Assembly (NCBI GenBank): GCA_036630325.1
Contig: CP142736.1
Coordinates: 558,001-622,000 of the forward strand
Origin: Vairimorpha necatrix
Taxonomy: Eukaryota
Reading direction: 5' to 3'
Length of the DNA stretch: 64,000 nucleotides
Position numbers and translations under genes: made by a program. Positions 22,901 through 54,597 of the stretch are shown here, piece by piece. The notes under the pieces were generated by a model that was given only the letters and a program-made list of their open reading frames with translations, searched no databases and was not told where the DNA came from. Each line of letters opens with the position of its first letter. The first letter of the stretch is position 1.

Positions 22901-25757
22901 GCCTTGGACATTGGAATTGCGGGAGTACTCACACAATTTACAGATACGGGAAAAGAAATGCCTATAACGTGGATAGGTAGAACGCAAAATAGCGCTGAAA
23001 TTAATTACACTACAACCGAGAAAGAGTGTTTAGCTATTGTATGGTCTATTGAAAAACTTAAAGTATATTTGTCTAACGATTTTATCATCAGGACAGATCA
23101 TAGTTCAGCGATATGGTTAATGAAACAGAAAACACCCATAGGGAGATTGGCAAGATGTATAATAAAACTGCAAAATTATAAATATGAAATCGAACATATC
23201 AAAGGTTTAGGTATTGTCTTGCTGATGTACTTTCACGTGGTGTATTAGAAAATTGCCAATTAAGAAAGTGTCAAACGGTGGTTAAAAATGAAGATAGAAT
23301 AAATATTGAAGAAGACAATGAAACAATAGCAAAACTTATACAGAGAGCACACTTAGAGCTTGGCCATGGAGGTTTGGATTTTACTATAATGTACATCAGA
23401 AATATTGCGAGTGTACCAAATATAAGAAACAGAGTAGTTGAATATATTCGATTTTGTGAGACTTGTAGAAGATTTAGAGACAATACGTTGCAAAACAATA
23501 TTAGACGTGTGGAAATAAAAAGTCCGTATCATATGATTGGGTTAGATATAGTTGGTCCTTTACCCACAACAGGCAGTGCAAATAAATTTATTCTGGTAGG
23601 AACAGACTACCTAACTAAATGGGCAGAAGTGAGAGCTTTAAAAAGAAAAGATGCGGAATCTGTAGCAAAATTTATTTATGAAGATTTTTTATGGAGACAT
23701 GGACCTCCTGAAGTAATATTGACTGATCAAGGACTTGAGTTTAACAATAAAATCATAAAGAAACTGTGTATAATGATAAATACTAGGAAGTCGTTTACAA
23801 GCGCCTACCATCCAAGATGTAATGGACAAACGGAGAGACTAAACGTACCCTTATTGCAAGGCTGGCTAAGATATGTAATGGAAGATGGTCAGAGTGGGAT
23901 ATGTTCCTATCAGTTGCGCTATACGCATATGGGATAATACCACTAATAAAATTCAAGAGCAGTCCTTTTAGATTGTTATATGGGAGAGAGCCTAACGATA
24001 TAACTACGGAGAAAGAAGATGGTGGAGCAGTATTTATAAAAGAAAACGATACACTTAAGAAGATTGAGTTGTTACGATAAAAGTTACACGAAAAGTGATA
24101 GAAGATAGAAATAGAGACATACAACGCGCGAATGATAGAGTTAAAGGCAAAAATATTTAAGTAGGAGATGCGGTTATGAAGAAAAAGGAACCATTTGAAA
24201 AGCTGAATAAGCTTGATTATAAATGGACAGGACCTTATCTGATAAGAAGAAAGTTTGACTCTGGTGGTTTTGAGATCGAGAACATGTATGGAAAACTATT
24301 TTGGTATAATGAAAAAGACTTACAACTAATTGAGAATTCAGATCCCACGGATTGGGAGAGTTTAAAGAAAGGGAGCATGTTACAGGATGATAATCTAGTT
24401 GCTGAGATTATCCTGTAATTACTTTATTGTAGATACTTACCAAAAGTATCTACTGTAAAATATTTACTATAAATAATAAATAAATATTTTACCCATCTAA
24501 AAATATTATGAAAATGAAGGAGAAACTTTATTTAACAGTACCAATGTGCAATAAGTACATGACACCCATGACCAAAATTAGAAATAATTTGGACAAATAA
24601 TGTTGTTACTTACGACGAAGTTGGAGAAAATGCTCAAACAAAGGTAACATTTACAAAGAAAGTATTTTTAAAAGTTCTAGATTAGATATAGAAGATCTTT
24701 TAATTTTGCTGTGTGAATGGGTCAAAGGTGTAAGCAATGTTTCGGCTACTATCGAATTGGATGTAGGTAGTAGTACCGTATCTCGCTGCTTTACGCGTTT
24801 TAATAACGCTGTATTCTTATCCTATTTCAACTACCTTCAAAACAAAACTATAGGAGGTTTAAATTGCGTAGTTAAAATAGATGAGACATTGCTTGTTAAA
24901 AGTAAAAACCATAACGGTAGAATCCTTCAATTCCACGTTTGGGCCGTTGGTGGAGTCGTACGAGGAGACAGCAATTCTTTTTTACAAAATTGTTGAAAAT
25001 CGACCAAGAACTACTCGTGTCGATTTAATAAAACGAAAAATCGCACCTGGATCTACAATTATTACTGATTGTTGGCGAGGTTATGAGGGGATTTCGGAAC
25101 TATGTCCTGATTATAACTATTTACATTTAACTGTAAACCATAGCCAAAATTTTGTAAATCCAACAACAGGCGCCCACACCCAAACAATTGAGGGATATGG
25201 TCTGTAATTAAAAGAGAATTGCGCAAAGAAGGAACAAGCCATGGTTCTTTAATGAATCTCATTCGAAAACTTTATAAAGCTCGTTTTAAGTTAATTTATA
25301 GAAAATCACTACTTGAAAGAATGTTATGCTTTTTTGAAGTTCAAAAAATATGGTTTTTAAATTACGATTTAGCCCCTGAATTTGATTTTGAATTAATTGA
25401 ATAAATTTTAGTTTTGTCTTTTTTTATTTTTTCCCCCTTTTTTAGGGGGGGATAACATCGCAACTTAACCTTTATGGGAGTCAAAAAATCCTACAAGCAG
25501 TATCCTAAGATGGTCAATGATGTTACAAGAATATAAATTTGACGTTGAATATTTAAAGGGCGAGGACAATATGCGGATGGTTGCAGTAGAATATTTAGCA
25601 AGGAACTAAGAATTGCAAGTATCACTAAAGACTTTTCAAGAGAAGAAAAGGAAAAGATACTTAAAGCCTATCACATGAAACGGGACATGGATCCATCAAT
25701 AACATGAAATTTACGATCAAGGAAAAATACTATTGAAAAGGAATTTATAAAGATATC

Positions 25758-27431
25758 CGGTAACCGTAAATTCGCCTACAGGCGAATTTACGGTTTTCCG
25801 CCAAAAATTAAAATTTGCATGTTTTTTCGCCAAAAAAATACCAAAAAAAATGATTGGCATTAATAAAAAATAAAAGATTTGAAAAGTTTATTATAATTTA
25901 AATTAAAATTTGTTTGTTATTTAAAAAGCATTTATAATTAAAATAGGTTTATTAAATTTACTTATTCGCATTTGAAATTCACGTGTTGCAGTAAAGCATC
26001 CATGTACTCTTCACGAGAATAATGTTTAAAATTTTTAATGATTATTCTAATTTTTTCAGCTTCAAATAATCCCTTTATAACGTTTTGGATTATATATATC
26101 CATTTCTTTACAATCGAGTATTCTTGAAATAAAAAGAGCGATATGGGGATTTCTTGTCTCCATCCTCTTGTTTATGGTTCTATTCCAGCTTTCTGCATTG
26201 TACAAAGTCCGGGAATTTCATTTTTTACCCTATCAAATACATTCCAAAAATTTATATTGGCGACAGCTCTCCCACCATTATCTTCTCTTGTTACATGGGA
26301 AACTAAATAATTATTTTCAAAGTATAACTGAAAGTTAGCTGTGGTTGTAATTGAATTATCTTGTATAAATTTCTTAATATCTTTATAAAAAACCGGAACA
26401 TCTCGTATTGGCACAAAAGCTAATCGAAGAATCTTTTTGAATACTAGATTATAGTTAGAATCGTTTTTAAACTTTTCTATGTCCCCCATTGCCCCGACTC
26501 TTTTATAGGCTGCCTGCCCAAGATGAAACAAGCATCCATTACAGTTTGCTCCAGGGAAAGATATTCGTAATGCATTGACCAATCCTCTCTCTCAAAATCA
26601 GTCACAAAGTTCTCAACATTCATAGTAACTAATTCCTTGCATTTATCGAAGCTCTAGAATATGACCTTTCACTTTTTCCATTGAGTAGAATATAAATGTA
26701 TGGAAAACTTTTGCCAAATATATGGCCATGAAAGACAAAAATTTGGTAAAATCCTTGAGGAGAAGATTTAAACGTTCCATCGACAACGAACGTGTCTATT
26801 TTTTCAATCATACTTTTTTTGAATTCTGAAAAAAATATTATAAATCTATCATTATCTTGCATACCACTATCAAATCTAAGAAAACGATTTTTTTTAGAAT
26901 ATACTTGCAAGACTTCGGGTATATCCATAATGCAACCAGTTATAAATCCGAGTCTTGAATTTCTTGTTCGTTTGAATGTATCTCTTAAATATTCTATGGA
27001 AGGCATTTTAGTAATATCTAAGCTGGTTGACAATGCTTGGAGTTGTTTTTTTTATTATTTCTAGGGAGTTTTCATTACTTGTAACAACTTGTTCTTTTTT
27101 TTTGATAGTTCTTTTAAACATGCATTTCTCAGGTACTGGTTCATGTGAATGAATAACTTTTTTAACGATTTCGTTTTGTTCATTCATTGTAATGGCACCT
27201 CTCTAAGACCTATTACTGCCCTTCCATCGCCTAGTGCCGTCCTTATTGTAGTCTAAAGTGTATATCTGATCTTCATAGATAAGATTCTGCCCCCACGTTG
27301 ACCTTTAAAAATTTCAAAGTTGTCGTTCATTTTTTTAAGGGTAGATTTTCGGCGGAAAAAGAAAAAATTTATGGGCAAAATTTTTGGCGAAAACAACCAT
27401 TTTTAAACTTTTGGCGAATTTACGGGCACCC
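25758..27431 (-). mobile_element. Mutator-like (MULE) transposon 1
   Basis: TIR core ccgtaaattcgcc; transposase from ATG 27330 with VVDGTFK and NGCLFHLGQA; flanked by an 80-bp direct repeat. Confidence 0.88.
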
Positions 27432-30312
27432 AAACGGGACATGGATCCATCAATAACATGAAATTTACAATCAAGCATAAATTCTATTGGAAAGGAATTT
27501 ATAAAGATATCGAAAAGCTGGTCTCAGGGAGTGTTATTTGCTTGAAATCTAGAAAGAAAAAAAGAAACACAAAACATAGGGTAATCGAAACTAGCAATCA
27601 CAACGAGCTTTGGGAGTTGACTTGATAGGGCGAATTTCTATACAATAACGCCATTCATTTCATCATAGTAGCGATCGACCATTACAGCAAATGGATAGAG
27701 ACAAAACATTTAAAAAACAAGGAAGCCAAAACCATTAGAGACACTATTGAAGAACTAATAATTATAAAAACTTGGTACTTCGAAACAATTTTGTCGGATT
27801 GCGGACTAGAGTTTAAGAACAAGCAAATAAATGATCTCAATGTTAAATATGGGTTTGAATGGAAATACTTATCACCCGAACACCATAATACATTAGGATG
27901 TGTGGAGAGAATAAACCAGACACTTTGGATAAATATAAAAAACTTACCAACTACGGAAAACCCTTTGGAGAAGTGCATTAGAAAAAGCAACGCTCGCCGA
28001 GAATTTATCCTTTAATAGGGCTATAAGAACTTCCCCATTCAATTTTAAATATGCAAGATCTCCTGAATTTGAGATTGATAAGATTTTTGAAAGGAATCTG
28101 TTATGTCCTTTCATAACATAATTTTATTTTATTTTATTTTCCCTTCAAGTTTTTAAAAAAATTATAAATAAAATTTTAAGAAAGGAGGGCATGATAAATT
28201 TAGAAAATAACTATTGTCGTTTGAGTTCAAAGGCTCCTACATATTTGACACGTTTGACATTTCTCAATATTTTATTATTTAAAACTTTTATATTTTACCC
28301 CCAAGCAAAATGGAAGGAAGAGAAGAAAAAACTAATAAACATTTTAATATCGACATGGCGACAGTGGCAAAAGCAATTAGTGAATTTAATGGCGATCGAG
28401 GCGAAGACATTGAAATGTGGTTAAAGAAGGTGGACATCTTGGCTCAGAGTACTGGACTTTCAGAGAACTCCATTTTAGGGTTAATCATAATTAAACTGAC
28501 AGGAGTTGCCCAGATATATTTGATATCTTTGACCAATGGGAACATTGCTAATATTACCTTAGGGAGTTTAATAATAAGTTTAAAAAAAACGGTTTGGTAC
28601 CCAAACGAATACAGATGAGATTCTTGATCATTTTTTAGCAATTAAATCAGTGAATTCTTACGAAGAATATTCAGAACTACTCAAAGAAGCCACCACTTTA
28701 TTCGAAAGAGACTGCATTGCACTTAAATCACTAATAAGGATGACTATATCTAAGTCTCCGCGGAAACTTAAAACATTGCTGTATCAATATTCATGCTGCA
28801 CTTCAAACTGGAATAACTTTGTCCAACAAGCGGAGGAGGCGGCCTGGATGGCTTTTCCCGAGAGAATCAACAATAGATTAGCCTCTACTGGAACTAAGAC
28901 ATCATATCAGAAAAGAGAAAGACTGCCTCAGAATATTCAAAGAAAAAAATTGTTCTGCATTATTCACAAGCATGGGACCACACAACAGATGATTGTTTTA
29001 TTGTTAAGCAATTGGAAGATAAAGGCTGGAGGAAAGGGAAATCAGCAAATGCGTTAGAAGAAATAAATAAAGCCGATAGCAACATTGACCAAGAAAATAA
29101 AGACTTCAACGTTTACACTTCTAATTCTCTTAGTTATGAAAGAAACCCTTTCTTTATATATTCCACCCTTTCAAAAGCTGCCCCTCACCTGACACTACTA
29201 GATACAGGTGCCGACATCTCTTTGATAAACATAAATCAAATATTAGATAAAAATAAAATAACATCAACAAGTGCTAAAATTAGATCGGCTTCGGGCTCTT
29301 TCATCAATATTATAGGTGAAATTAAGAACCTCAGATTGAGAGTATTCGATGAAGAAATTATATTCTCCCCGTTAGTATGTAAAGGGTTACCTGACTATTC
29401 TATTCTCGGAACTGATGTTATTATAAAATACCCACGCTTGGTCCAAAAAATTCTCCGAAAATTCTTACCTTCAACAAAAATAAATTGTATTCCATTAACG
29501 CAGGAGATTGGAACGAAAAGTAAAACGGACCTTACAGAAAGAAAGATTAGGTCTAATACTATTTGTAAAAGTGAGAATATGGGTCAACCAATCACTTCAG
29601 AAATTCGTCTTAAAGAGAACGAAATAATTACTAAATTTTCCGGATGCTTTGGAGAAACCATCGCACCTGAACCCATTTAAGGTGCAACATTGCATTTCAT
29701 TGACACAGGAGACCATCCTCCTATAAACCAAAAAAACTATCGAATCCCGATACATTATGAACAAGAAATTTCCGAAGACATTCGAAGGAAGCTACAATAG
29801 GGTGTTTTAAGAGAATTTCATAGCCCATGGTGTTCAAGACTCGTCCCTGTTCAAAAGCCTGATAAATCTTTAAGATTATGGATTGATTTTCGAGCTCTGA
29901 ATAAAATAACAATAAGAGATAAATACCCGTTACCCCGAATTGATGAAATACTAGACAGACTAGCTGGGCAAGGACGTTTTCGACCTTAGATGCAACATCT
30001 GGATACTACCAGATCGGTATAAATAAATCAGATAAACAGAAAACAACGTTTGCATGGAAGGGCGGGCTATATGAATATAACAGAATGCCTTTCGGATTAT
30101 GTAATGCTCCCGCTACTTTTCAAATTGCTATGGATAAACTTATCGGAAATCCATGTAATGATTTTGTTATCCCGTATCTAGACGATATAATCATATTCTC
30201 AAAAAACGAAAAAGAACATGGGAAACATCTTCTTATTGTTTTAGAGAAATTAAAAGAAACAGGAAGGCTGACCGATTTTTCGGCCTTAGGCCGAAAAATG
30301 GTCTTTCGGCCT

Positions 30313-30500
30313 AAAAAAAATAAATAAAAAAATAAATAAAAAAATAAATAAAAAAATAAAAAAATAAAAAAATAAAAAAATAAAAAAAAAAAAAAAAAAA
30401 AAAAAAAATAAAAAAATAAAAAAAAAAAAAAAAAAATAAATAAATAAAAATTAAATAAAAATAAATCAAAAAAAAATATTAATAATAATAAAAAAAAATT
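30313..30500. repeat. A-rich low-complexity tract in the MULE 2 subterminal region
   Basis: Runs of (aaaaaat)n and poly-A. Confidence 0.85.
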
Positions 30501-30673
30501 AATTGTTGTAACACATGAAACAAGTACTATCTTGTTTCAAACACCAGACAGTTTCAGTCATCGTAAACCAGTTATCTTCTATTATCTGTAACGTATGTTT
30601 CACTGAAACTATTTAAGAAAACTTATTCTAATAAATTATGCAATTTAATACAGACATGTCTTCGGGACTCAAC

Positions 30674-33600
30674 ATGGCGACAACGATCAAAGGACTAAGG
30701 CAGTTTGCAGGTGAACAAGATGAAGATGTTTACCTTTGGATCGACGAGATCCTATTTATCGCGCAAATTATGCAAAAAACCGAAGAAGAGACTTGTAAAA
30801 TGATTTTTTTACTGCTTAAAGGAGCAGCTCTAAGTTGGGCGTCAGAAACTATTGGAGGTCGCGCCAATCAAATCACATTAAACAATCTACTGGAAGAACT
30901 GAAAACACGATTCGGGGGACAGCAAAATACTAATATATCCCTAATTAGATTTCTAAATGGTAACCCACCTACATCGAGAACCGAATTTACAAAATTATTA
31001 CAGGACGCAACTGTACTCTTCAAAAAAAACTATATGAATATAGTACTGTTACCGGCTGTGTTGCACACACCAATAATCAGACTAAAACTGAAAGATGAAA
31101 CAAATCATAATGATCTGAAACATGATTGTTTCAGATCCGAAACTAAAACTATTTAAGAAATCTTAAATAGAATAGATATGCCAAATAAATATAGTTCTTC
31201 TTCTAATAAAAAGCCTTCTTCAATAACCAGCTCTCCTTCTGGTAACAAGTACCTCTTACGAAAGTCGTGATAAACAAATCACCGTGCCCACTAAAACCAT
31301 TATTACTTCAAGCAGCAGAAGTAGTCGAATCATGGGACCTCTTCGTGAAAAGAGCCGAGAACATCGCATGGATGTCCTTCCCGGATAAATGTCTTAATAG
31401 GGTTACATCGGAATATAGCTCCGATACGGCTGCCCCGACCAACAAAAGATATTGTGAATACCATGAGAGTAACACACACAATACTAAAGATTGCATGTAC
31501 CTAATTCAGCTGAAAAAACAAAAAGGCGGGTTCAAAAAAAACTCTTTTGATAAAAGAAAAAGAAATTCGTCCATAAATTCGATAATTGACAATGGACAAT
31601 CACCGATGACAGAAGAAGTTGAAGAAGATTCAATAAAAAGTTTTAACTTGTACTCGGTTTCTGAGCATACTTTTATATCCAATCCATTCTTCCATATATT
31701 CTTACTTAACTCAAAGCCAATCTGGTGTTTGGTTGACACAGGAGCCGATGTATCAATAATAAACGAATCCTGTATAGAAAAAATGGACTATATCACAACA
31801 AAAAACAGAGGAAATACTAGAATAAGGTCGGCATGTGGGACAGAAATAAAAATATTAAATCGAGCAAACGAAATCGTTTTAGATAAAAAGACGGGCGGTT
31901 CAATCCGCATTAGCCCATATATAGTAGCAAACGGTCCACCTTATATAATACTAGGTTTGGACGCAATTACTAAATATCCGGATCTCCTAATTAATACTAC
32001 ACGAAAACTAATGTCAAGACATAAGAGGACTAAAGAGCCCACTTGCCTTCATTCTCTCACAAGCGAACAGATAGCTTCAAAATACAGTGATATTTTTCAA
32101 ACGGAAATCTCTGAGTTAAACGTGTGTACTAAAGGTAAACACAGGATTGAAATATCGTCAAAGGTGCCTATTTGCTCAAAAGGAGGAAGAGTTCCACTAC
32201 ATTTATGTGAAGAAATTGACAAAGAAATAGAAAAAAATCTTAGGCTTAAAATTATAAGGAAAAGTAAAAGTCCGTGGCGAAGCCAAATTGTGGCAGTTCC
32301 TAAACCAGACGGAACATTACGGATGTGTATAGATTATCGTCCTTTAAACAAAATCACAGTAAAGGACAGATATCCAATTCCTCGAATTGACGAAATTGTC
32401 GACAATCTTGCAGGTGCGCTCATTTTTACCACGCTAGACGCAACTTCTGGTTACTATCAAGTTGAAGTAGATGAAAATGATAAAGAAAAGACTGCATTTT
32501 CCTGGAGAGGGGGACTATATGAATTCAATAGAATGCCCTTTGGTCTCTGTAATGCGCCAGCAACATTTCAGAGGATAATGGATGAAATCTTTGAAGATGA
32601 ACGATATAAGTTCGTTATGCCTTATCTTGATGATATCATAATATATTCCAGAAACGAAGAAGAACACGGACAACATGTGGACATAGTCATGAGGAAACTG
32701 AAGAGAGCTGGAATAAGCTTGAATAAAGCTAAATGTAAATTTATGAAAACAGAAATCAAAATCTTAGGAGTCATTATTGGACATAACACAGTTCGGCCAG
32801 ACCCTGCCAAAATAGAAGCTATTAAAAAGTTCCCATTGCCCGAGACAGTTACCAAATTACGATCATTTTTGGGCATAGTAAATTACTGCAGAGAGTTTAT
32901 AAGGGATTACGCAACCATGGCCCGTCCCTTATTTAAGCTTGTGGGTGGAGAAAAAAAGAATTCACAGAAGCAAATTGAATATACAGAAACAGAAAAGCTT
33001 GCATTTAAACAAATCAAAACGATTTTATCTTCTGCACTCGAACGACAACAGCCTGACGTGAACAGAAAATTTGTGTTAACAACAGACGCCTCTGATATCG
33101 CAATTGGAGCAATACTTTCTCAGGTTGACAATGATGGTAAAGAAAAAATGATTTCCGCATTTAGTAAGGAATTAGATAAGGCTCAACAAAATTATTCAGT
33201 AACGGACAAAGAACTCTTAGCATTAGTCAAAGGCATAGATAACTACAGACACTACTTGTTGGGAAAAGAATTCGTAGTGCGAACGGATCACAAAGCGTTG
33301 GCATATCTTTGGGAATCAAAAAAACCCAGCAGCCGTCTGCTAAGATGGTCATTAAAATTGCAAGAGTATTCCTTCAAAGTAGAATATATAAAAGGAGAAG
33401 ACAATATAGCCGACGCAATGAGCAGAATTAACATTAGTTCTCTGCGATCTAACAAAACATTAAGTGATACGACGCCAGAACTGAGACGAGAAATTATAAA
33501 AGAGTATCATTTATCGCTTGGACACGCATCTTCTGCCGCTATGAAGTATGTAATTACGAAAAGGTATAAATGGGAGGGGATGTTTAAAGAGATTGAAAAT

Positions 33601-34464
33601 TACATCAAAACATGTAGCATTTGTCTAAAAGCTGGAGGACCTCTAGTTAAAACTAAGAATAGGGTAATTTCTTCTTCACAGCCAAATGAATTATGGGAAG
33701 TAGATCTGCTTGGAAGAATTCCCTCAAGAACTGGGAATAAATTTATTTTCGTCGCCGTTGACCACTTTACAAAATGGATAGAAACCAAAGTATTATCTAA
33801 AAAAACTCCGGAAAATATAATTAAGTGCATCAAATCTCTTATCATAGGCAAACACGGAAATCCCCGTAGAATACTCTCTGACGTCGGTTTAGAATTTAAG
33901 AATAGCAAAACAAGCAATTTTGCCGCGAGCCATAACATAAAGTGGGAGTTCGCTTCTCCTGCTCACCATCAGACGGTGGGATGCGTGGAGAGAACAAACC
34001 AGACACTATGGAGGAAATTAAAAAAACTATCTAACTTCGGAAAGATAAAATGGGAAACTAAAGTGGCCGATGCCACACTGGCTGTAAATCTCTCTTATAA
34101 TCGGGCTATCAAAACAACACCGTTCATGTTTAAATACGGTTACGTACCAGTATTAGAAGTGGATCGCAAATGCGGCAAAGCCAATTTACCGATTGACAGG
34201 AGGGTACTTATCCGAGAACGAGACAAATATTTAAAAGCGTACGAAAAAGAAATAGAGCAAGGGAAAAGAGACATTAAGACAGAGTTACAAATTGATGATC
34301 CTGTGTTAATCTATAAAGAAGCTGTTTCAGATAAACTCAAGCCCGAGTGGACTCCCGGCTATAGAATAGTCAAGAAAGTTCCTCCGGATGCTTACATTGT
34401 GAAATCTAAAAATAAGCATTTCCGACTCAACAAAGCACACATCAAACTCAATACGGGTCTTTAA
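30674..34464 (+). pseudogene. Single-ORF gag-pol of Gypsy E, broken only by a solo LTR
   Basis: Removing 31047-31252 restores the frame; VDTGAD, YLDD, TDAS, HHCC and DDE integrase motifs. Confidence 0.9.
31047..31247. mobile_element. Solo LTR in Gypsy E gag
   Basis: tgttacc...ggtaaca ends; TSD agtac. Confidence 0.9.
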
Positions 34465-37400
34465 CTAAGCAAGGGGGTGTTGTAACACATGAAACAAGTA
34501 CTATCTTGTTTCAAACACCAGACAGTTTCAGTCATCGTAAACCAGTTATCTTCTATTATCTGTAACGTATGTTTCACTGAAACTATTTAAGAAAACTTAT
34601 TCTAATAAATTATGCAATTTAATACAGACATGTCTTCGGGACTCAACATAAATAATATAAAAAAACAATAAAACTAAACATAATAACTAATATTAATTTA
34701 ATAATGTAAAAGGGTATTCAAGAGTAGATGAAATTTGAAATAAATAATCAAGCGCGTCTATGGTTTCAAAATTGGATACAATATCATATATATATTTCTC
34801 TTATATATTTTTACACTTTTCATTTACTTTAAAGAACTTGTAATAAGCGCGTAGAATTTTTTGCCTGCTTTTCAAATGCTCCTCATGTAACCTTTCTCCA
34901 GAAACACCCAAATCCGGATTTGCTACAGTAAAAAGATTATCAAGCGATCTATGAAATCCTTCTAAACTATTCGTAGTTCTTGGTAACTTATGTAATACTC
35001 GGTTTTAAACATTCCAAAATAAAATCTCTTCTGCGTCAATGTCAATATAATTTTTAAATACAAATCCTAAAATTGTTTCATATCTCTTTCTATCACTCCT
35101 TGACATAAGCTTTTCTTTAATCAGACCAAAATAATTTAGAACCTCAATAGGTTTAACAAAACTTAACGCTAAAATCCTTCTTATATTCATTTTAAATTCG
35201 ATATCATTTTGATACAACGTGCTCACTTTCAACTCTTGCACTTTCCTATAAATAATCTGGGAAAAATGAAAATTGCACCCATAGAAAACTGCGGCAGGAA
35301 AAGCTGTTTTGAAAGCTTTTCTTGGTGCTAATTCAAAATCTAAATTAAAACATTTAGGGTTAAAATTTGGTGCTTTTTCCACTATAAAATCACATATTTT
35401 CTTATATGATGCCTCATTTTTTTTAACATTAGTATAAATACCAAAGGAATGTACTTAGTATTGATATACGCGACTAGAGTATAGAGTTGCTTGAACTTAG
35501 ATGGAGCAAACTTGAAAGTACCAATCATTAAAACAGTTTTAGTATTCTCAAGGTGAATTAAATTTTCTAGCGTGCAAAGAATCACGACTCTTTCCTTATC
35601 TTCTATCCCAGAATCAAATTGCACAAATAATTCGCCTGTAGGCAAATATTTAATTGAATTTGTGATATCGGTTTTATCGGGAGTTGAGTAACTATGCCTC
35701 CCGTTTCGCATTCTCTTAATTCTATCCCTAATACTAAAGATATCAGGTGTTTTTTTAAAGCTTCATTAGAATATTCTTTCAACGCGTCAAAAATTATAAT
35801 TCTTGACGCCTCAGCAGTTTCCTCTGCCCGTTTTAAGATTTGACCGTAGGAATATTCGAATTTATTTTTGTCGAAGTCTGGCTCGTGTTTGTGGGGGGTA
35901 ACGCTTAAAAAAACTACAATCTAAATTTGTATGAAGTTTTGAAGTGCAGTTTTCTGCTCTACATCTTCATATTATTTTTTCTTTTCCGTTATATCTGAAA
36001 TTATACGCATGTCCTGCATATAATATCTTTCTTCCTCCTCTTTTGGAACGAACTTCACACAGTTCTTCGTGGGATAAATTATCCATTGGGGTATTTTAAA
36101 ATAATTTTTTTTGGGCCGAAAGACCGATTTTTCGGCATAAGGCCGAAAAATCGGCTTGCCATAATCATATTCTCAAAAAACGAAAAAGAACATGGGAAAC
36201 ATCTTCTTATTGTTTTAGAGAAATTAAAAGAAACAGGAATAGTGCTAAAAAAATCAAAATGCACATTTTTTAAAGACGAAAGAAAAATACTAGGCAATAT
36301 TGTTTCAAGGGGATACTTAAAACCCGATCCCACGAAGATTGATACGATTCAAAAATACCCCTTTCCAGAGAACCTAAAAAGCTTACGGTCATTCTTGGGG
36401 CTAGTGAATTACTGCCGCGAATATGTAGCATCTTATGCAGAGTTAACAGGACCATTCTTTAGTCTTCTTAAGGGAGAAACGAAAAATAGTGTAAAAAGAG
36501 TACACTGGTCAGAAGATTTACAGATAAAGTTTCAAAGTTAAAGCAAGCTCTTGCCGGCAAGATAAAATTGAAACAACCAGACTTTAAGCTAATATTTATC
36601 TTAATCACAGACGCGTCTGAAATTGGATTGGTGCAGTCCTTGTACAAGCTGACGATAATGGTGTAGAAGAGGCCATCTCCTTATTTAGTAAAAAATTCGA
36701 CGATTGTCAAATGAATTACTCAATTACAGATAAAGAACTTCTGGCTGTCGTTAAAGGCATAAATAACTTTAGACATTACCTTTTGGGGAAAGAATTTACG
36801 TTAAGAACTGACCATAAAGCGCTAACGTACTTATGGGAATCAAAAAATCCTACAAGTCGGATCCTAAGATGGTCAATGATGTTACAAGAATATAAATTTG
36901 ACGTTGAATACATAAAGGGAGAAGACAATATTGCTGACGGCTGTAGTAGAATATTTAACAAGGAAATAAGAATTTCAAGCATCATTAAAGATTTTTCAAA
37001 AGAAGAAAAAAAGGAAATACTTAAAACATATCATATAGAAACTGGGCATGGATCTGTTAACAACATGAAATTCGCAATCAAAGGAAAATATTTCTGGGAA
37101 GACATATATAAAGACATCGAAAAGCTGGTTACTGAATGTGTTATCTGTTTAAAGAACGGAAATAAAATAAGAAATACAAAACACAGGGTAATCGAAACTA
37201 GTAACCATAATGAACTTTGGGAGGTTTATTTGATAGGACGGATTCCGTATAATGGCACTAATCATTTCATTTTAGTAGCAATCGACCACTACAGTAAATG
37301 GATAGAGACAAAACATTAAAAAATAAGGAAGCTGAAACCATTAGAGATTCTATTGAAGAACTAATAATTAAGAAACATGGTACTCCGAAAACAATTTTGT

Positions 37401-38684
37401 CGGATTGCGGACTCGAGTTTAAAAACAAACAAATAACGGTTTTAATTCAAAATATGGGTTTGAATGGAAATACTCATCGCCAGAACACCATAATACAGTG
37501 GGATGTGTTGAGAGAGTGAACCAAACACTTTGAAAAAATTTAAAAAAATTTACCAATTACGAAGAATCTTCATGGAGAAGCGCATTAGAAAAAGCATACA
37601 CGCTGTGAATGTTTCATTTAATAGAGCCATAGGAACTTCCCCATTTATTTTTAAATACGCGAGATCCCTGATTTTGAGATTGACAAGAAATTTGATAGGA
37701 AGCCCATAAAATTCCAAAGAATGTCTCTGACTAAGAAGAGAAATAAAAATTTTGCTAAATATAGAAAAAGCATAGAAAAGGGTACGATAACGGCCCCGTC
37801 AAATTTTTCAATTGGTGATAAAGTTCTTATATACAGAGAAAACAAAAATAATAAAATGAAAGCTAATTGGTTTCCTGGTTATGAAATAACGGATAGAATA
37901 CTACCGGATGGGTTTATGGTTAAAAATAACAAAAGTTTAATTAGAGTTAATAAAGCTCATATCAAACAAGACCTTTCTTTGGGGGGAGGGAGATGTCGTA
38001 GGAGCTCAAAGGCTTCTACATATTTGACACGTTTGATATTTCTCAATATTTTATTATTTAAAACTTTTATATTTTACCCCCAAGCAAAATGGAAGGAAGA
38101 GAAGAAAAAACTAATAAACATTTTAATATCGACAATTTTAAAATACCCTGATACCAGGTATTTCTAATTTGACAAGAAGAAAAAAGAAAGGACATTGGCG
38201 AAGCTGAAATTTCAATCAGGATAGACTTACCATAGTTGTGAATGAAGAGTTAAGAAATATTATTCTTTTACTTTAGGAAATAAATATGATCATGTAATAG
38301 TTTTAGAGAAGACACAGGATGAAAAAAGGTCAAGTTACTACTAAAGAACGATAAAAAAAACTAAAAATTAATTTTTTTTCAAAGCATACATCCAATATTT
38401 TTCGCTACAAAGGCGTTGGTGTATCTCCTTTTGGAACAAAGACTTGAATTACGATCACTAAAGATGCTAGAGAGGAATACGTGGGCAGACTCTAAGCGCA
38501 CTGGCCGAGAATATATTTGCTAAAGAAGTGGTATGTGTATGTGAATAGTAGTATATCAAAAGATTTTATAAGCATTTATCATATTAGTATTTGAAATTGA
38601 AATTCAAAATTTATAAGCGCTCCTAAATATAAGTGCTATCAACATCTAACATCTAGGAAAAATGCACAATTATATGAATTATTT

Positions 38685-39804
38685 GGTGCATCTTTAGTAA
38701 CGTGCCGGAAGGTAACACACCCCCCCCCCTTACAGACAAAAATTTAACAAAATTTTGAAAAAAAATAAGAAAACGATATAAAAATGCTTATTTAATTCAG
38801 TAGTTTAGATAAAAGATCAACAAAACCCTTATAGAAGTCTCCCATATCATCTTCTCGAAGCATAAATTTCCTATACATAAATTCATCGAGACATGTATCT
38901 ATCTACGACCGTTTTACTCCATGTTCTTTGGTCATTTCAGACTTAAGTTGAGACCATACGTTCTCAATATTATTTGTATGAATACCATCAGGAGATAAAA
39001 ACCTATAGAATGATTAACAACTTGATGACTTAGACATAAATTTTCTGCCACCCCAGGATAACTAGGATGACCATCGCTATGTAAAACCGAACCTACACAA
39101 ATTCTTCCCTCTAGAGCAGCAGTAAGGCACTCAATGGTTCTATTCTCTACCCTCGTAATATAGAAGTTTGAAGGATTTTGAGCATCTATTATGCCCAAAA
39201 TCCAAACGGTGTCCCTTATAAAGTCGTCCGAAGAGGTAGGAGATCTTATTTTACCCCTTCTGCATATAACAGACTCATCTACTTGAACGACTTGCCCGGG
39301 TCCTCCGATTATAATTCTATTCTTTAGCAAATCTTTATAGATCTTTCTGAGGCTGCTTTTTACGGCAGAGATTGTAGCTGTTGAAACGCCCAATCTTGCC
39401 ATCAACTGAAAGTAAGAATATCTGCATAATATTCCAAATACAAGGTCACAGAATGTATGAAGAGGAACCTTGCAGCCTTTATTCACAGCCAACCGCGCAC
39501 TGCATTTGTAGTTCGAACAGCGATATGCTACTCTTGTAACGATTTCCTCCTTGACAGGACCCAATCTCATGTTACATCCACATTTGGAACATGATTTTTG
39601 CTCCTTCAGCACTTCTAAGTCAATTAAAGCTTCTAAACAAGTGTCAACGTTATAAAAAAGCCTTTGTATATTCACAAGTTTAATTTTTGTGCTTTTCTTT
39701 AGTAACGTGCCGGAGTTTTCTAAATCGATGTTGTCCATTTTAGGGGTAAAAAAATATTTTTTAAAAAAACAAAATCCCGGCACGTTCGTTACTAAAGATG
39801 CACC
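38685..39804 (-). mobile_element. Merlin transposon
   Basis: Perfect TIR ggtgcatctttagtaacg; 8-bp TSD aattattt; VQVDES, SDGHPSY; frameshift near the C-terminus. Confidence 0.93.
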
Positions 39805-39859
39805 AATTATTTAAATATTTTTCAAAATTAAATAAAATTTTACAAATGTATTAAAATAG

Positions 39860-44107: not shown

Positions 44108-44814
44108 GATTAAAGTATATTTAGAGTTTCTACAATGTATGATTTTAATATCGAATCAATATTTGATTTTGTAGTACCTTTCTTATTTAATTTAATTTAA
44201 ATTCTAACTCGTATAATTATATTTACACAGATCTATAGCTATCATTTCTTTGTTTTAATTCTTTGAAAAATTAAAAAATAATGCGAAATAAACAATAAAC
44301 GTTCATTGTGTATTGTATGGTACAAAAATAACATACATATAGTTATAACAATGGAGATTCATCAGGAATTTATTCTTAAAATATCATAGACGTACAGAAC
44401 TCAATAATTAACTAAAATATCTGTTGTAAACTAGCACAATAATTTCTTTAAATAGAATTAAGGATAAATACCGACAATATCAACTTGGTGGCAGGCATCT
44501 TTTTTCATAACATCACTTATTTTACTTTTGTTATCATGTTAAAAAACATGACTTGTCATATTTGTCCTGTTAAATTTATATCTACATTATAATCTTTTGT
44601 ATTAATAAATTTGTTTCATTGTTTATGTTTGTGTGCGAAATTGTTTAAGTTCCATTGTAAAATTGTTTAAGTTTGTTTGCAATATTGTTTGAGTTTGTTT
44701 GTAATATTGTGAAATTGTTTGAGTTTATATGTAAAATTGTTTTAGTTTGTTGATTTAAAAGTTATTTAAACAAACAAATAAAACTATAAATAAAGAAAAA
44801 AATTTAACCTTAAT

Positions 44815-46212
44815 ATGTTTTTCGTGAACTTGCTCATTGTTTTCATTAAAACAATAAGACCATTTACTGCTGTCATTGCAGAAGGAACTTGCGAACAAAT
44901 ACCCGAAGATATTTGTAAGGCTGTAGGTAGACGAGGGGTTGTAGCTAATTCTACAAATATCAATGCCATGGTAAACTTATTGAATAAAATGAACATTGAA
45001 AAGGCCTATGTATTTGGGTGGGAAGATTGCCCAGAGACCATGGTATTGTATTCTAATGGAGCTCTTGTCCCATACATCAAAGACAGAATTAGAAGTAAAT
45101 ACGCAATGTGCATAGGAGATTGTCCATGTAGACCTAAAATACTAGGCGAATCTACTAAAGAATGTTGTGCTATTAAGGAAGAGAGACCTAAATCATGTTG
45201 CGAAACAAAGAATATAGAATCCAAGACCTGTTGTAGTACAGATAAAAGGGCCGAAAGTCTATGCTCATGCAATCAGATGCTAGTCAACAAATCTGGGTTT
45301 ACAATGAAAAGCCAACCTCACGTGTCGTGTTGTAATACGCAAGAAACAACATCATTCTGTATCATTAAAGATCATGAAGGTAAAATGACAGAATCCAAAA
45401 AGTGTTTTCTAACTCAAGAATCAGCGCCCCGTCAATTTGAAAGATATAAAGGTTCATGTTGTTACATTGACAAGAGATCGTGCTGTAAAAAGACACGACC
45501 GAGAGCTTGCACCAATGATCGTAAAAATAATTGTAGATGTCATTTAAATAAAAGACCGTGCTGCAGTTATGATTATAAACAGCATTGTTTTAAAACAAAA
45601 AGATGTTGTATTGATAAAAACTCATACAATGATAATAATCATAAGCTACGCCTTTGTAATAATGAACACTACGAAGAATCTCATGGATCAAGACAAGAAA
45701 ACGAGTCTTCTTCAGACATTTATATTCAGAGCTCTGAAGAATATTGTGACGTGAAAATAGATAATTGCTTAGTACCTCCTACTATCGAACATAATGAATA
45801 TTTTCAAGAATTTTTTTATGCCGATGAAGAAAGAAAAAATAAAACGACGACAATAAAATCAAAATCTTTTGAATTTAAGACAGTCGAAGATGGAAATATT
45901 TCTTTAGCAGAAAATGAACACACATATCAACACACAAAAAAAGAAATAGTAATTGACAAATGTGATGGTAAACTGTTGAACATTCCTAGAAAATTATATG
46001 ATCCATTCCTACTCTATCAAATTACTAGTAAACTCAGTTCCAAGCATCGTATGCCCGTGTGTCTATATATCACTGACGATGATTTATTATTTGTGATGAT
46101 AAATCATAAGATGTATCACGTTGACATAACATGTAGAAAGTTAGTACTTGAAGAAGTATGTAATAAAGATAAGGAAATGCTTCAATTGCATCTCATAAGA
46201 TTTAGAAATTAA
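44815..46212 (+). CDS. Secreted Cys-rich spore wall/endospore protein, EnP1 (SWP30)-like
   Basis: Hydrophobic N-terminus; CEQIPEDICKAVGRRGVVA..GWE..LYSNGALVPY..YAMCIGD resembles the Encephalitozoon EnP1 N-terminal domain as recalled; long CC-rich basic middle; AATAAA overlaps the stop. Confidence 0.8.
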   Translation: MFFVNLLIVFIKTIRPFTAVIAEGTCEQIPEDICKAVGRRGVVANSTNINAMVNLLNKMNIEKAYVFGWEDCPETMVLYSNGALVPYIKDRIRSKYAMCIGDCPCRPKILGESTKECCAIKEERPKSCCETKNIESKTCCSTDKRAESLCSCNQMLVNKSGFTMKSQPHVSCCNTQETTSFCIIKDHEGKMTESKKCFLTQESAPRQFERYKGSCCYIDKRSCCKKTRPRACTNDRKNNCRCHLNKRPCCSYDYKQHCFKTKRCCIDKNSYNDNNHKLRLCNNEHYEESHGSRQENESSSDIYIQSSEEYCDVKIDNCLVPPTIEHNEYFQEFFYADEERKNKTTTIKSKSFEFKTVEDGNISLAENEHTYQHTKKEIVIDKCDGKLLNIPRKLYDPFLLYQITSKLSSKHRMPVCLYITDDDLLFVMINHKMYHVDITCRKLVLEEVCNKDKEMLQLHLIRFRN

Positions 46213-50538: not shown

Positions 50539-51785
50539 CACCAGGTTGATTCTGCCTGACGTAGACGCTATTCCCTAAGATTAACCCATGCATGTTTTTG
50601 ATATGGAAAAATGGACTGCTTAGTAATACTCACTTTATTTAATGTATTAAATTAGTATAACTGCGTTAAAGTGTAGCATAAGACATATACAGTAAGAGTG
50701 AGACCTATCAGCTAGTTGTTAAGGTAATGGCTTAACAAGGCAATGACGGGTAACGGTATTACTTTGTAATATTCCGGAGAAGGAGCCTGAGAGACGGCTA
50801 CTAAGTCTAAGGATTGCAGCAGGGGCGAAACTTGACCTATGGATTTTATCTGAGGCAGTTATGGGAAGTAATATTCTATTGTTTCATATTGTAAAAGTAT
50901 ATGAGGTGATTAATTGGAGGGCAAATCAAGTGCCAGCAGCCGCGGTAATACTTGTTCCAAGAGTGTGTATGATGATTGATGCAGTTAAAAAGTCCGTAGT
51001 TTATATTTAAGAAGCAATATGAGGTGTACTGTATAGTTGGGAGAGAGATGAAATGTGACGACCCTGACTGGACGAACAGAAGCGAAAGCTGTACACTTGT
51101 ATGTATTTTTTGAACAAGGACGTAAGCTGGAGGAGCGAAGATGATTAGATACCATTGTAGTTCCAGCAGTAAACTATGCCGACGATGTGATATGATATTA
51201 ATTGTATTAGATGATAGAAATTTGAGTTTTTTGGCTCTGGGGATAGTATGATCGCAAGATTGAAAATTAAAGAAATTGACGGAAGAATACCACAAGGAGT
51301 GGATTGTGCGGCTTAATTTGACTCAACGCGAGGTAACTTACCAATATTTTATTATTCAGAGAAGATTTTTAATCTGAGAATGATAATAGTGGTGCATGGC
51401 CGTTTTCAATGGATGCTGTGAAGTTTTGATTAATTTCAACAAGACGTGAGACCCTTTTATTAATAGACAGACACAATCAGTGTAGGAAGGAAAGGATTAA
51501 AACAGGTCCGTTATGCCCTCAGACATTTTGGGCTGCACGCGCAATACAATAGATATATAATCTTTATGGGATAATATTTTGTAAGAGATATTTGAACTTG
51601 GAATTGCTAGTAAATTTTATTAAATAAGTAGAATTGAATGTGTCCCTGTTCTTTGTACACACCGCCCGTCGCTATCTAAGATGATATGTGTTGTGAAATT
51701 AGTGAAAACTACTTGAACAATATGTATTAGATCTGATATAAGTCGTAACATGGTTGCTGTTGGAGAACCATTAGCAGGATCATAA
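50539..51785 (+). rRNA. Microsporidian SSU (16S-like) rRNA
   Basis: caccaggttgattctgcctgac start, gtgccagcagccgcggtaa, gtacacaccgcccgtc, aagtcgtaaca; reduced length of about 1.25 kb. Confidence 0.98.
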
Positions 51786-51820
51786 TAAGTTAAATTTAAA
51801 TTAATTTTAATTATTAAATT
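51786..51820 (+). other. Very short AT-rich ITS
   Basis: About 35 nt between SSU end and LSU start; limits approximate. Confidence 0.75.
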
Positions 51821-53415
51821 TACCCACACATGGGATCAATAGGATACCATAACGATGAAGGTCGTAATAGAATACGAAAGTATATTATTTACCTAATTAA
51901 TATATTTATAATGTATTGATAACCCTTTGAACTTAAGCATATCATTAAAAGGAGGAAAAGAAACTAACTAGGATTTCTTTAGTAGCAGCGAGTGAACAAG
52001 AAATAACCCTCCATTGTAATCCTTAATTGGAGTTGTAAATGGTTTATTCTATTAATTATATTTATAGAGAATATTAAATTCGTTATTAATAGAATAGAAT
52101 AATGTACTTGAGTAGAGCTGCTTGGTAGTGCAGTTTGAATAAAGGTAGAATGAAATATCTAAGGTTAAATATAATGGTATACCGATAGAAAATAAGTACT
52201 GCGAAGGAACTTGTGAAAATGTGTGGAGTTTAGCCTTATTTTTAAGGACCCGTCTTGAAACACGGACCAAGGAGATTATAATTATAGCAAGATAAAAATT
52301 AAATTTTTTAATCTTTATTAACTTGATTAGTTATAATTATAAGACCCGAAACACAGTGAACTATACATGTTCTGGTTGAAGATAAGCAACAGTTTATTGG
52401 AAGACCATAATCATTCTGACGTGCAAATCGATGATTTAAGATGTGTATAGTGGCGAAAGACCAATCGAACTGTGTGGTAGCTGGTTCACAGCGAAATGTC
52501 TCTCAGGACAGCAGTTATTATTATATAGGACATAGATGTAGGACACTGTTATAGTTTTTTTACTATGAGAAATCTTTAATTCTATGGAATTATATAAATT
52601 AAATTTATATAATGAATCTATTGTATAACTAGTGGGCACATGATTGTAAGAATGATGTGCAAAAAGGGATGAACCTTATGAAACATTAAATATTCTAAAT
52701 AGTAGATATTATACCATAAATATGATGAATACATTGAGACAGTAGGGCGGTTGTTATGGAAGTAGAAATCCGCTAAGAAACGTGTTACAACGTACCTACC
52801 GAATGTATTATTGTATAAAATGGAAGAAGATTACTACTTTTATGAGATGTTTCTAATAAATATTTAGGTAGCTGTGCAATTTGTTTGTATTGAAGTATAT
52901 ATGTGAGTATATATAGAAGAAACAAATGAGCCGATCTTGGAGGCAGTAACAATATATTTGTATAGATATAGACTAGGGTTTTCAATTATTATTGAAGTGA
53001 ATCGGTGTTATTTATAAAAACAAAAAAGATTAATAATTCTTTATTAAATTATTATAAGGTAACTTGATAATGACAGTATATTTTAATAAATTTAAGATAA
53101 ATGAATTAAATTTTATTTTAACTATGGATTGTCATGATAAGAAATAGTTAATTATATATACTTGATAAAAATAAAATAATTTTAACCGTACCTATACCGC
53201 ATCAGGTGTCTTTGTATCATAACAAATATTTTAAATTAAAGTAAGTAAGGGAATTCGGCAAATTAGATCTGTAACTTTGGGATAAAGATTGGCTCTAGCA
53301 TGCTAGAACTTTTACTATGTAAGGAATCTGACTGTTTATTAAAAACATAGCTTTTTGTATTTACAAGAAGTGAATTCTGCCCAGTGCATTTATTGTTAAA
53401 GTTGTGTAAGCGAAT

Positions 53416-53468
<53 letters not shown>

Positions 53469-53567
53469 TTAATTGGTGACGCGCATGAATGGAGCAACGA
53501 GATTCCTACTGTCCCTACTTACAATTTTGTGAAACCACGAGACAAGGGAACGGGCTTGTTATTTATC

Positions 53568-53599
<32 letters not shown>

Positions 53600-54034
53600 T
53601 TAGTATGTTTTAATAAATATTCGGTATATTGTAGAGAGGTGGGAGAAGTATTGTGAAACCACTAGTATGTTTGAATATTTATTTATTAGAATATATGGGG
53701 AGTTTGGCTGGGGCGGTACAGCTGTTAAAAAGTAACACAGCTGTCCTAAGGTAGATGAATGATGGATGGTAACCATCAGTTTATTATAAGGGAATAAATC
53801 TGCTTTACTTTATGCATATGACTGTATTTAGTAGGGAAACCTTGGCCTAGCGATCCCAATTACATTCATTATGTATTGGGTGATTGAAAAGTTACCACAG
53901 GGATAACTGGCTTGTAGCAGGCAAGCGATCATAGCGACTCTGCTTTTTGATTCTTCGATGTCGTCTCTTCTGATCATCGTAGTGTATATGTTACGAAGTG
54001 TTGGATTGTTCACCCGGTAATGAGGAACGTGAGA

Positions 54035-54076
<42 letters not shown>

Positions 54077-54300
54077 TAAGTATTTTTGAGTGAACTTTGA
54101 TAGTACGAGAGGAACTCTAAGTGATGACCACTGGTAGTGCGATTAACTATTAAGTTATGTTGCTTAGCTACGTCGTTTCGATTAAGGCTGAAAGCCTCTT
54201 AAGCCTGAAGCGTAGCTCAAAGATATATTTAGGAGAATACTACTCTTTTAAGCAGAACTGTAAGAATGAAGGTGTATGCCGACATTTTGAGGTTACTGCT
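51821..54300 (+). rRNA. LSU rRNA with 5.8S-equivalent fused at its 5' end
   Basis: aacgatgaag (5.8S motif), gaacttaagcatatca, gacccgtcttgaaacacggacc, taactatgactctcttaaggtagccaaa, SRL agtacgagaggaac; ends approximate. Confidence 0.97.
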
Positions 54301-54597
54301 TTTTTTGTATGTATAGTAGGTGTTGTGTTGTATTGAGAGCGTACTTGATGTGGAGGGTGGGACTGATGTTTTTTAACTAGGTGCAGATCTCTAAGTCTTA
54401 CCAACCTTCGGCTGCTGGTTGGTAAGTAGGGTCAGCTATACTCTAGGGGTGGGAGACCCATTGCTGGTATGAAGAACACCGTTAACTTTCGAGTAATTCT
54501 TCATATTTTTAACCTGGGAGAGGTTGGGCATGATACTGAAGCTGTATTGTTCCGCTGAACTGAGTCGTGTTCTTAAATGGTGTATTGAACCAGGCGT

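Follow-up and report, generated by a model that had tools for sequence, protein, structure and literature searches.

Two MULE transposons in Vairimorpha necatrix are flanked by 79- and 80-bp duplications that suggest a widely staggered target cut

What kind of transposition event leaves a perfect repeat of 79 bp on either side of a MULE transposon? The question arises at a locus within a 64-kb stretch of DNA (64,000 nucleotides, hereafter the window) that contains two such elements, MULE 1 and MULE 2. The host of both is a microsporidian parasite, Vairimorpha necatrix. A constant length of the target duplication (TSD) is taken to mark each DDE transposon superfamily, since that length is set by the target spacing of the two active sites. 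For MULEs this length is short: the original prediction gave 9–11 bp, and this holds, as the duplications measure 8–11 bp across the groups described in the available text of PMC6446971.

MULE 2 extends from 30266, where its first letters are GGCTGACCGATTTTTCGGCC, to 36160, where its last letters are ...GGCCGAAAAATCGGCTTGCC. A repeat search over 29000–37500 finds the 79 nt to its left (30187–30265) again to its right (36161–36239) with 100% identity, and in the junction alignment both copies adjoin the inverted termini (TIRs) to the base. Similarity between the copies stops at the left edge of the 79-mer (..gacgat/ATAATC.. versus ..cttgcc/ATAATC..) and also at its right edge (..CAGGAA/ggctga.. 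versus ..CAGGAA/tagtgc..). The duplicated segment is part of the reverse transcriptase (RT) region of the host Gypsy element. An uninterrupted Gypsy paralogue carries a single homologue of the 79-mer (8149–8225, + strand; 85.7% over 77 nt). Identical repeats, exact abutment on the TIRs and a target that is single in the related copy had all been claimed from the sequence at the outset, and all three are borne out. Removal of MULE 2 together with one 79-mer in silico leaves a single open Gypsy RT frame over the junction (..YLDDIIIFSKNEKEHGKHLLIVLEKLKETGIVLKKSKC..), and the excised host sequence is colinear with 7862–8584 of the paralogue over 726 nt at 85.0% identity. A third member of the repeat family (32635–32713, 65%) belongs to a Gypsy nested inside MULE 2, where it forms the homologous part of the RT. 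A perfect 79-mer repeat within 64 kb cannot be produced by chance. In an independent public sequencing run (X1), an 849-nt contig covers 29455–30293, from host RT across the left repeat into the TIR; the run contigs shown support only the left junction of MULE 2, and none of them spans the right junction or gives an empty site.

The host Gypsy that carries MULE 2 lies at 28215–38134 on the + strand. Its LTRs (28215–28355 and 37994–38134) form a 141-nt pair with 5 differences, and its RT/IN frame is restored by the in-silico excision. It has no matching 5-bp TSD (ACTAT versus ATTTT) and was therefore left out as a control. MULE 2 itself is a FLYWCH-MULE transposon of about 1.75 kb. A young nested Gypsy LTR retrotransposon (30504–34648, + strand; LTRs 30504–30674 and 34478–34648) makes up two thirds of the interval; it was absent from the original prediction, as was the dead transposase. 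The nested element has an identical 172-nt repeat with TG..CA ends, a PBS-like TGGCGAC, a polypurine tract, a gag-like ORF (30635–31156) and an open pol ORF of 1072 aa (31246–34464). The termini of MULE 2 are imperfect TIRs in which 51 of 57 aligned columns are identical. The left TIR (30266–30322, +) has a terminal palindrome, CCGATTTTTCGGCC / GGCCGAAAAATGG, with a DNA hairpin of -16.3 kcal/mol (z -5.5), and the right TIR (36104–36160, -) has a hairpin of -19 kcal/mol (z -5.5). The nested Gypsy inserted into an A-rich, minisatellite-like 3' region of self-matching repeats (30306–30503).

The transposase gene of MULE 2 (34696–36086, - strand) covers the whole length of 462-aa homologues but is broken by three frameshifts and three in-frame stops. 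Residues 1–461 of the family protein P0001 align to 36086–34708 in three frames, with the N-terminus of MULE 2 matching residues 1–112, and the pieces are 53–55% identical to P0001. LDFE and TTNSLEGFH are retained. The first catalytic D is lost (IGTF versus DGTF in homologues; IGTFK), so this copy is inactive. The piece at 35005–35454 (-) matches Pfam MULE with E 4.9e-4 and 20.9 bits, under the cut-off of 27.6. Atlas matches of the transposase are MULE clusters, and a word-indexed search of longer proteins with a 149-aa piece as query gave no match. This MULE 2 copy is now dead and later became a target of Gypsy insertion. The idea, prompted by perfect repeats beside a broken gene, that the element must have been defective already when it inserted was dropped, since zero differences over 79 bp still permit about 2% divergence per copy.

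MULE 1 belongs to a second FLYWCH-MULE family. It is 1674 bp long (25758–27431, - strand), with termini CGGTAACCGTAAATTCGCC and, as reverse complement, GGGTGCCCGTAAATTCGCC. Its left and right flanks (25678–25757 and 27432–27511) are copies of an 80-bp segment from a Gypsy integrase zinc-finger region, identical at 75 of 80 positions. The target is another Gypsy gene than that of MULE 2, and both lie within Gypsy pol genes. The TIRs share 16 of 19 terminal bases and subterminal motifs, in the same architecture as in MULE 2. Identity between the two transposases is 29–32% in tblastn matches and 28–29% in pairwise alignments; MULE 2 pieces as tblastn query find MULE 1 with E of 2e-15 and 1e-7. 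Residues 20–466 of P0004 align to 27283–25971. The gene is frameshifted, and its motifs are kept across the shifted frames (VVDGTFK, TDFE, NAESWNR). Since family and target differ and the repeats match at 75 of 80 positions, MULE 1 represents an older, separate event: the two insertions are independent, with duplications of nearly the same length. A contig of another run (X2) joins 25676 to 27432 with one 80-mer and no MULE, and has 11 mismatches on one side; by its sequence it may be a paralogue rather than an empty allele. As both transposase copies are broken, activity is not inferable from these copies.

Both elements belong to one FLYWCH-zinc-finger branch of the MULE/IS256 DDE superfamily, consisting of cut-and-paste transposons of about 1.7 kb. 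With a profile built from both MULEs, 5756 proteins are recovered at E<=1e-3. Full-length homologues have about 455–480 aa, and the DGT, D.E and N..E columns are invariant among 30 of them. The Pfam MULE (PF10551) cut-off is passed by P0001 (33.9 bits), P0004 (55.3), P0015 (47.2) and P0006 (50.0), and that of FLYWCH (PF04500) by P0001, P0004 and P0015; at E<=0.01 the family proteins match MULE and FLYWCH only. An AlphaFold model of P0001 (pLDDT 89.9) has chains of the ISCth4 transposase (6xg8, 6xgx) as its top PDB matches (E 1.5e-5 to 4.5e-3; prob 1.00 for the best). Sequence identity to ISCth4 is about 11–14%, and TM-scores are low (0.19–0.35) because domain orientations differ. The FLYWCH domain 2rpr is matched as well. 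Among solved relatives the best is IS256-type and not IS4/Tn5-type, which sets the transposase apart from the IS4-related family of IS1634 and IS1549. The elements share with the MULE superfamily its catalytic domain, DDE motifs, FLYWCH finger, TIRs and an RNase H-like fold related to IS256, and depart from it in a TSD of 79 and 80 bp instead of 8–11 bp.

Is the long duplication peculiar to these elements? A tblastn search with eight homologues finds exactly two MULE loci in the window, and both have it. The window has 20 direct-repeat pairs of 35–300 nt with an identity of 85% or more and a distance below 15 kb. Inverted termini just inside the repeats occur only in the two pairs that flank the MULEs, with 26/30 and 21/30 matches in one or the other; the other 18 pairs score 3–16/30. 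An internal control lies 2.4 kb from MULE 2: a Merlin-like element with an IS1595/Merlin-type domain (38685–39804; 38677–39812 with the TSD), flanked by a canonical 8-bp TSD, AATTATTT. An X2 contig skips 38677–39804 with 8 ambiguous letters, matching an empty site of this element. It follows from this neighbour that neither the host nor the assembly gives rise to duplications of about 80 bp as a rule. Comparison by eye of the four MULE cut sites, few as they are, revealed no shared target sequence or symmetry. Searches further afield gave no confirmed relatives: the TIR pattern matched no stretch of the metagenome contigs, and none of the pattern matches was confirmed for P0001 in metagenome (228), viral (1) or prokaryote genome contigs (124) or for alignment A5 in prokaryote genome contigs (154).

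Taken together, these two insertions, both in Gypsy DNA of one 64-kb window, indicate that this MULE lineage probably cuts its target with a stagger of about 80 bp. We know of no mechanism for an 80-nt stagger in any DDE transposase. Each 3' end of the element would be joined by the transposase to a different target strand, at positions 79–80 nt apart (a 5' stagger), where the corresponding stagger of other MULEs is 8–11 nt. Host repair would then fill two long single-stranded gaps and so leave a 79–80-bp direct duplication outside the TIRs. Each terminal palindrome may bind one transposase dimer. We infer that the stagger is fixed within the lineage and that a structural ruler determines it, although copies with 8–11-bp TSDs could exist elsewhere in the lineage. 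A widely staggered cut had been proposed originally, and the proposal gains support from the only other MULE in the window, which, in another family and at another target, has 80 bp and not 9–11. The accompanying remark that about 80 bp is close to one gyre of nucleosomal DNA also holds as regards spacing, as adjacent gyres bring positions about 80 bp apart next to each other according to the available text of 10.1101/240598 and 10.1101/2024.05.21.595243. This spacing is a plausible, if speculative, ruler. The preferred form would be a pair of sites brought together on neighbouring gyres of a nucleosome, or the edges of an ~80-bp histone particle; alternatively, the transpososome itself may wrap or loop the target DNA. 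In its most specific form, which we regard as possible but doubtful, the clade would target the nucleosome, with a two-fold symmetric transpososome sitting on the pseudo-dyad axis, opposite the dyad, and hitting both gyres at about SHL +4/-4. Opposite strands would be attacked, and each duplication of about 80 bp would record one superhelical turn.

Other origins of the repeats have to be weighed against a fixed wide stagger. They could be long but variable in the manner of IS1549 and IS1634 (8–514 bp), with no fixed ruler and with 79 and 80 alike by coincidence. Those insertion sequences demonstrate that DDE elements are able to produce long, copy-dependent direct repeats, for which the available text of PMC2266710 gives no known model, and two insertions are too few to define a distribution. 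Independent events in two families that end 1 bp apart would nonetheless be improbable under a broad distribution, and we consider this explanation unlikely. Quite unlikely, in our view, is a secondary origin from a normal stagger of 8–11 bp, either by unequal crossing-over between two insertions about 70–80 bp apart or by aberrant transposition with the ends of two copies. In the crossing-over version the same element would have inserted twice, on sister chromatids or homologues, with an exchange inside the element. By reasoning alone, such events could in principle yield flanking duplications with no diagnostic scar, and both MULEs lie in repeat-rich DNA. However, a rare double event would be needed twice, in two families and at two targets, with 79 and 80 bp as the outcome and both repeats adjoining the TIR ends to the base, and tblastn finds no second copy of either MULE nearby in the window.

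The location of both MULEs inside Gypsy pol genes could also point to a peculiarity of repair in the microsporidian or of Gypsy-targeted insertions, for example extensive resection and fill-in after a normal short-stagger insertion, or RT template switching during the copying of a MULE-bearing Gypsy. We judge this very improbable. A clean 8-bp TSD flanks the Merlin-like element of this window, and the nested Gypsy is flanked by one of 5 bp (flanking 5-mers TTAAT / TAAAT, 4 of 5 matching); resection does not yield duplications with ends fixed at the TIRs, and template switching would need full TIR-to-TIR copying and re-entry 79–80 nt back, twice. Mis-assembly around a repeated element is an extremely improbable source of the duplication. 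Window and run contigs do differ in homopolymer lengths, which indicates small errors or copy differences, but the repeats of MULE 1 differ at 5 of 80 positions and so represent two real loci, and the X1 contig runs through the left repeat into the TIR of MULE 2. An assembly error would not, moreover, set target copies exactly against both TIRs of two different elements.

If a stagger of about 80 bp is indeed the property of this MULE branch, it would break the rule of TSD length and would need a new geometry of target capture, with strand transfers 7–8 helical turns apart. In the literature covered (subscription journals and Repbase being outside its scope), no TSD above about 11 bp was found for any eukaryotic DDE transposon, MULEs included. 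Finders of transposable elements and MITEs with a TSD limit of about 20 bp would miss such elements or place their boundaries wrongly; a search in Nosema, for example, used a setting of 2–20 bp (PMC4405373). Should the nucleosome be the ruler, these would be the first DDE cut-and-paste transposons with a chromatin-templated, nucleosome-sized target duplication. MULEs would then serve as natural chromatin probes in microsporidia and provide a new model of integration machines that read nucleosomal DNA.

Among known systems, MULEs have their prokaryotic sister group in the IS256 family. TSDs in this family are short (8–9 bp), and a solved relative attacks closely spaced target phosphates. One of its members, ISCth4, is the best structural match of the modelled transposase, yet it has no FLYWCH domain. 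Target nicks far apart, as proposed here, occur in eukaryotic mobile elements of another kind, the non-LTR retrotransposons R9 of rotifers (126 bp) and Dualen-4b of Chlamydomonas (median about 900 bp), according to the available text of 10.1101/2022.05.23.493040; these rely on target-primed reverse transcription with separate nicks and no DDE transpososome, and their lengths are variable or site-specific. Closer in kind are IS1549 of Mycobacterium smegmatis and IS1634 of Mycoplasma mycoides, TIR-bounded DDE elements with long target repeats as here, to which the original prediction had rightly pointed. They are bacterial and IS4-related, and their direct repeats range from 8 to 514 bp depending on the copy, with no mechanistic model in the available text of PMC2266710, in contrast to 79 and 80 bp in the two copies described here. 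The canonical MULEs (MuDR of maize, Muta1 of Aedes aegypti, Hop, Jittery, TvMULE, Phantom and others) have in common with the present elements the Pfam MULE DDE domain, TIRs, cut-and-paste transposition and an N-terminal zinc finger of the WRKY/FLYWCH type, given as FLYWCH for TvMULE in the available text of PMC6446971. Unlike them, as far as that text describes them, the elements of V. necatrix combine a length of about 1.7 kb and a transposase of about 460 aa with a palindrome at each terminus and with TSDs of 79–80 bp, about eight times the length known for the MULE class.

The original prediction held that the Mutator-like element MULE 2 (30266–36160) is flanked by perfect 79-bp repeats placed directly against its terminal inverted repeats (TIRs), and it is borne out by 79/79 identity, exact abutment at both ends and a single copy in a paralogue. 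A repeat search finds 30187–30265 and 36161–36239 identical over 79 nt, and comparison of the flanks finds no further identity beyond them on either side. The termini of MULE 2 are imperfect inverted repeats (51 of 57 aligned columns identical), and each is itself palindromic, consisting of CCGATTTTTCGGCC, a 3–5-nt loop, and then GGCCGAAAAATSG. As single-stranded DNA, these palindromes fold far better than shuffled controls (z −5.5 at both ends). The flanking repeats are duplicated target sequence. MULE 2 lies in the reverse transcriptase (RT) region of an older host Gypsy (28215–38134), the LTRs of which differ at 5 of 141 positions. In-silico removal of MULE 2 and one repeat copy leaves a single continuous RT frame over the junction, and what remains aligns colinearly with a Gypsy paralogue at 7862–8584 (726 nt, 85.0%), where the 79-mer is single, at 8149–8225.

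The interval between the 79-nt repeats is composite. A nested Gypsy retrotransposon, probably a recent insertion, occupies 30504–34648; its two LTRs are identical, its pol ORF (1072 aa) is open, and both a PBS-like sequence and a polypurine tract are present. It is inserted in the A-rich 3' part of MULE 2, and its flanking 5-mers, TTAAT and TAAAT, match at 4 of 5 positions, with one base different. Contigs of X1 and X2, two public sequencing runs, skip a 206-nt stretch (31042–31247) between its gag-like and pol ORFs. Without the nested Gypsy, MULE 2 is about 1750 bp. Its transposase gene occupies 34696–36086 on the minus strand, where residues 1–461 of P0001, a full-length homologous protein of 462 aa, align in three different frames. 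Judged from the sequence, this transposase is complete-length but dead; it has three in-frame stops and three frameshifts, and another residue stands in place of the first catalytic aspartate (IGTFK, versus DGT invariant in 30 homologues). One of the frameshifts lies within a run of A residues that has one base fewer in X1 and X2 contigs, and with this shorter variant (35907) residues 1–112 of P0001 align in a single frame. Because the variant seen in both runs removes the frameshift, some of the damage may reflect an assembly error or a difference between copies. Homopolymer lengths at 35892, 35907 and 35974 differ between the window and the run contigs, thus the window may contain homopolymer errors or the contigs may come from other copies.

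There is one other MULE in the window. It is detected at about 26000–27300 on the minus strand by tblastn with pieces of MULE 2 (E 2e-15 and 1e-7), and eight full-length homologues used as tblastn queries match only these two loci within the window. MULE 1 (25758–27431, minus strand, 1674 bp) is from a different family; the transposases are 29–32% identical over the tblastn matches and 28–29% in pairwise alignments. MULE 1 keeps the DGTF, DFE, and NAESW motifs, spread over shifted frames. Its terminal architecture is that of MULE 2 (six bases, CCG, an A/T pentamer, CGCC or CGGCC), with an additional inverted second copy of the terminal motif at the left end. Its target is a different one, the zinc-finger region of a Gypsy integrase. 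The flanks, 25678–25757 and 27432–27511, form an 80-nt direct repeat that is identical at 75 of 80 positions, and the five differences mark these as two real, older copies, which an assembly duplication would not give. An X2 contig contains the Gypsy integrase region with a single 80-mer, no MULE and an open frame; with 11 mismatches on one side, this contig may come from a paralogue instead of the empty allele. An X2 contig joins 27418 to 25762, both inside the termini of MULE 1, with one extra A. This join is probably another family copy or an alignment effect of subterminal repeats; it could also be an end-to-end junction, from either an excised circle or a tandem copy. The proposal that the long duplication comes from a transposase lineage making widely staggered cuts is supported, and it is strengthened by MULE 1 with its 80-bp duplication in a different target.

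MULE 1 and MULE 2 are MULEs in all tested respects except duplication length, as follows from Pfam, atlas, and structure-match results. Searching with a profile of their N-terminal catalytic halves returns 5756 proteins at E ≤ 1e-3, 8 of them at E ≤ 1e-30, and full-length family members have about 455–480 aa. The origins of ten members were checked: Cucumispora dikerogammari, a microsporidian, contributes one, a named protein; JGI/IMG contributes two, and Logan assemblies the other seven. The full-length homologues P0001, P0004, and P0015 each score above the Pfam cut-offs for MULE and for FLYWCH; the window transposase piece alone has a MULE score below the cut-off. In a language-model atlas, the MULE 2 piece falls among MULE clusters, and the clusters near it point to rotifers, arthropods, and Ascomycota. 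For the AlphaFold model of P0001 (pLDDT 89.9), the best structural matches are ISCth4, a transposase of the IS256 family (E 1.5e-5, prob 1.00, with low TM-scores), and a FLYWCH domain.

The association of long direct repeats with inverted termini was compared across the window. Direct-repeat pairs of 35–300 nt with an identity of 85% or more and a separation below 15 kb were listed (n = 20), and the 30 nt immediately inside each copy were compared as inverted repeats. The two MULE pairs score 26/30 and 21/30, and the remaining 18 pairs 3–16/30. The long duplication is not general to this genome or assembly, because a Merlin-like element at 38685–39804 (38677–39812 with its target-site duplication, TSD), with an IS1595-type domain and TIRs of ~24–28 bp, has a canonical, perfect 8-bp TSD, AATTATTT. 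An X2 contig lacks this element and has exactly 8 ambiguous letters at the empty site; its absence there points either to an insertion polymorphism (presence/absence) or to a paralogue without the insertion.

The window is microsporidian, since Rfam finds microsporidian SSU (50539–51785) and LSU (51900–54234) rRNA. The rDNA unit lies within 50539–55925 in SSU-then-LSU order, followed by GC-richer 263-nt and 206-nt repeats, and its surroundings are transposon-rich. A Merlin/IS1595-like transposase fragment is present at 24881–25404. Word depth in X1 over 25068–25601 is very high, about 53,700, and the element there is therefore highly repeated in that run. A DNA transposase fragment at 330–785 has a Pfam DDE_3 match below the cut-off. 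Long ORFs at 44794–46212 (472 aa), 56085–57794 (569 aa) and 57751–61479 (1242 aa) are possible additional genes of mobile elements; for the first two, Pfam gives no match at E ≤ 0.01.

The simplest account of both duplications is 79–80-nt staggered joining and gap repair: a transposase branch would join the two element ends to target strands 79–80 nt apart, and repair of the long gaps would duplicate the intervening target DNA. As a lineage trait, this is drawn from two of two MULEs in one 64-kb window. Unequal crossing-over involving two neighbouring insertions is improbable, and so is aberrant transposition, as either needs two rare compound events in two families with lengths within 1 bp. 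Host repair or reverse transcription is a poor explanation too, since such scenarios do not leave an entire element, TIR to TIR, bounded by exact repeats, and the 8-bp TSD of the Merlin-like element speaks against any influence of the host. For MULE 1, the mismatches between its repeats exclude mis-assembly; for MULE 2 it is unlikely, as an 849-nt X1 contig continues from the host DNA across the left repeat and into the TIR; among the X1 and X2 contigs shown, none spans the right junction. Duplication of variable length, as in IS1634 (8–514 bp according to the accessible part of PMC2266710), is compatible with n = 2 and is a less favoured reading.

Because 79 and 80 bp are nearly identical lengths, the staggered joining suggests a ruler that sets duplication length. 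Nucleosome-gyre spacing would be a plausible explanation; about 80 bp is the distance of sites apposed on adjacent nucleosome gyres. In the accessible portions of the respective sources, T-box factors read ~80-bp dual-gyre motifs (10.1101/240598), and nucleosome supergrooves pair SHL 5.5 with −2.5 (10.1101/2024.05.21.595243). We infer that the SHL +4/−4 pair lies on the nucleosome two-fold axis, a position that would fit a transpososome with symmetry. Other candidate rulers are an ~80-bp sub-nucleosomal particle (cf. PMC4699385) and wrapping of the target DNA by the transpososome.

One study counted microsporidian MULEs but did not analyse their TSDs (PMC5751038), and a survey of Nosema MITEs limited the TSD to 2–20 bp (PMC4405373). 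No long-TSD eukaryotic DDE transposon was found in the literature outside Repbase and subscription journals, and no further copies or relatives were found in metagenome contigs (by TIR pattern and with P0001), viral contigs (with P0001) or prokaryote genome contigs (with P0001 and with an alignment). Known MULEs have TSDs of 8–11 bp in all groups surveyed in the accessible part of PMC6446971, where microsporidia are not mentioned, in contrast to the 80 and 79 bp of MULE 1 and MULE 2. Long eukaryotic TSDs are described for R9 (126 bp) and Dualen (10.1101/2022.05.23.493040), which are non-LTR retrotransposons, whereas MULE 1 and MULE 2 are DDE transposons.
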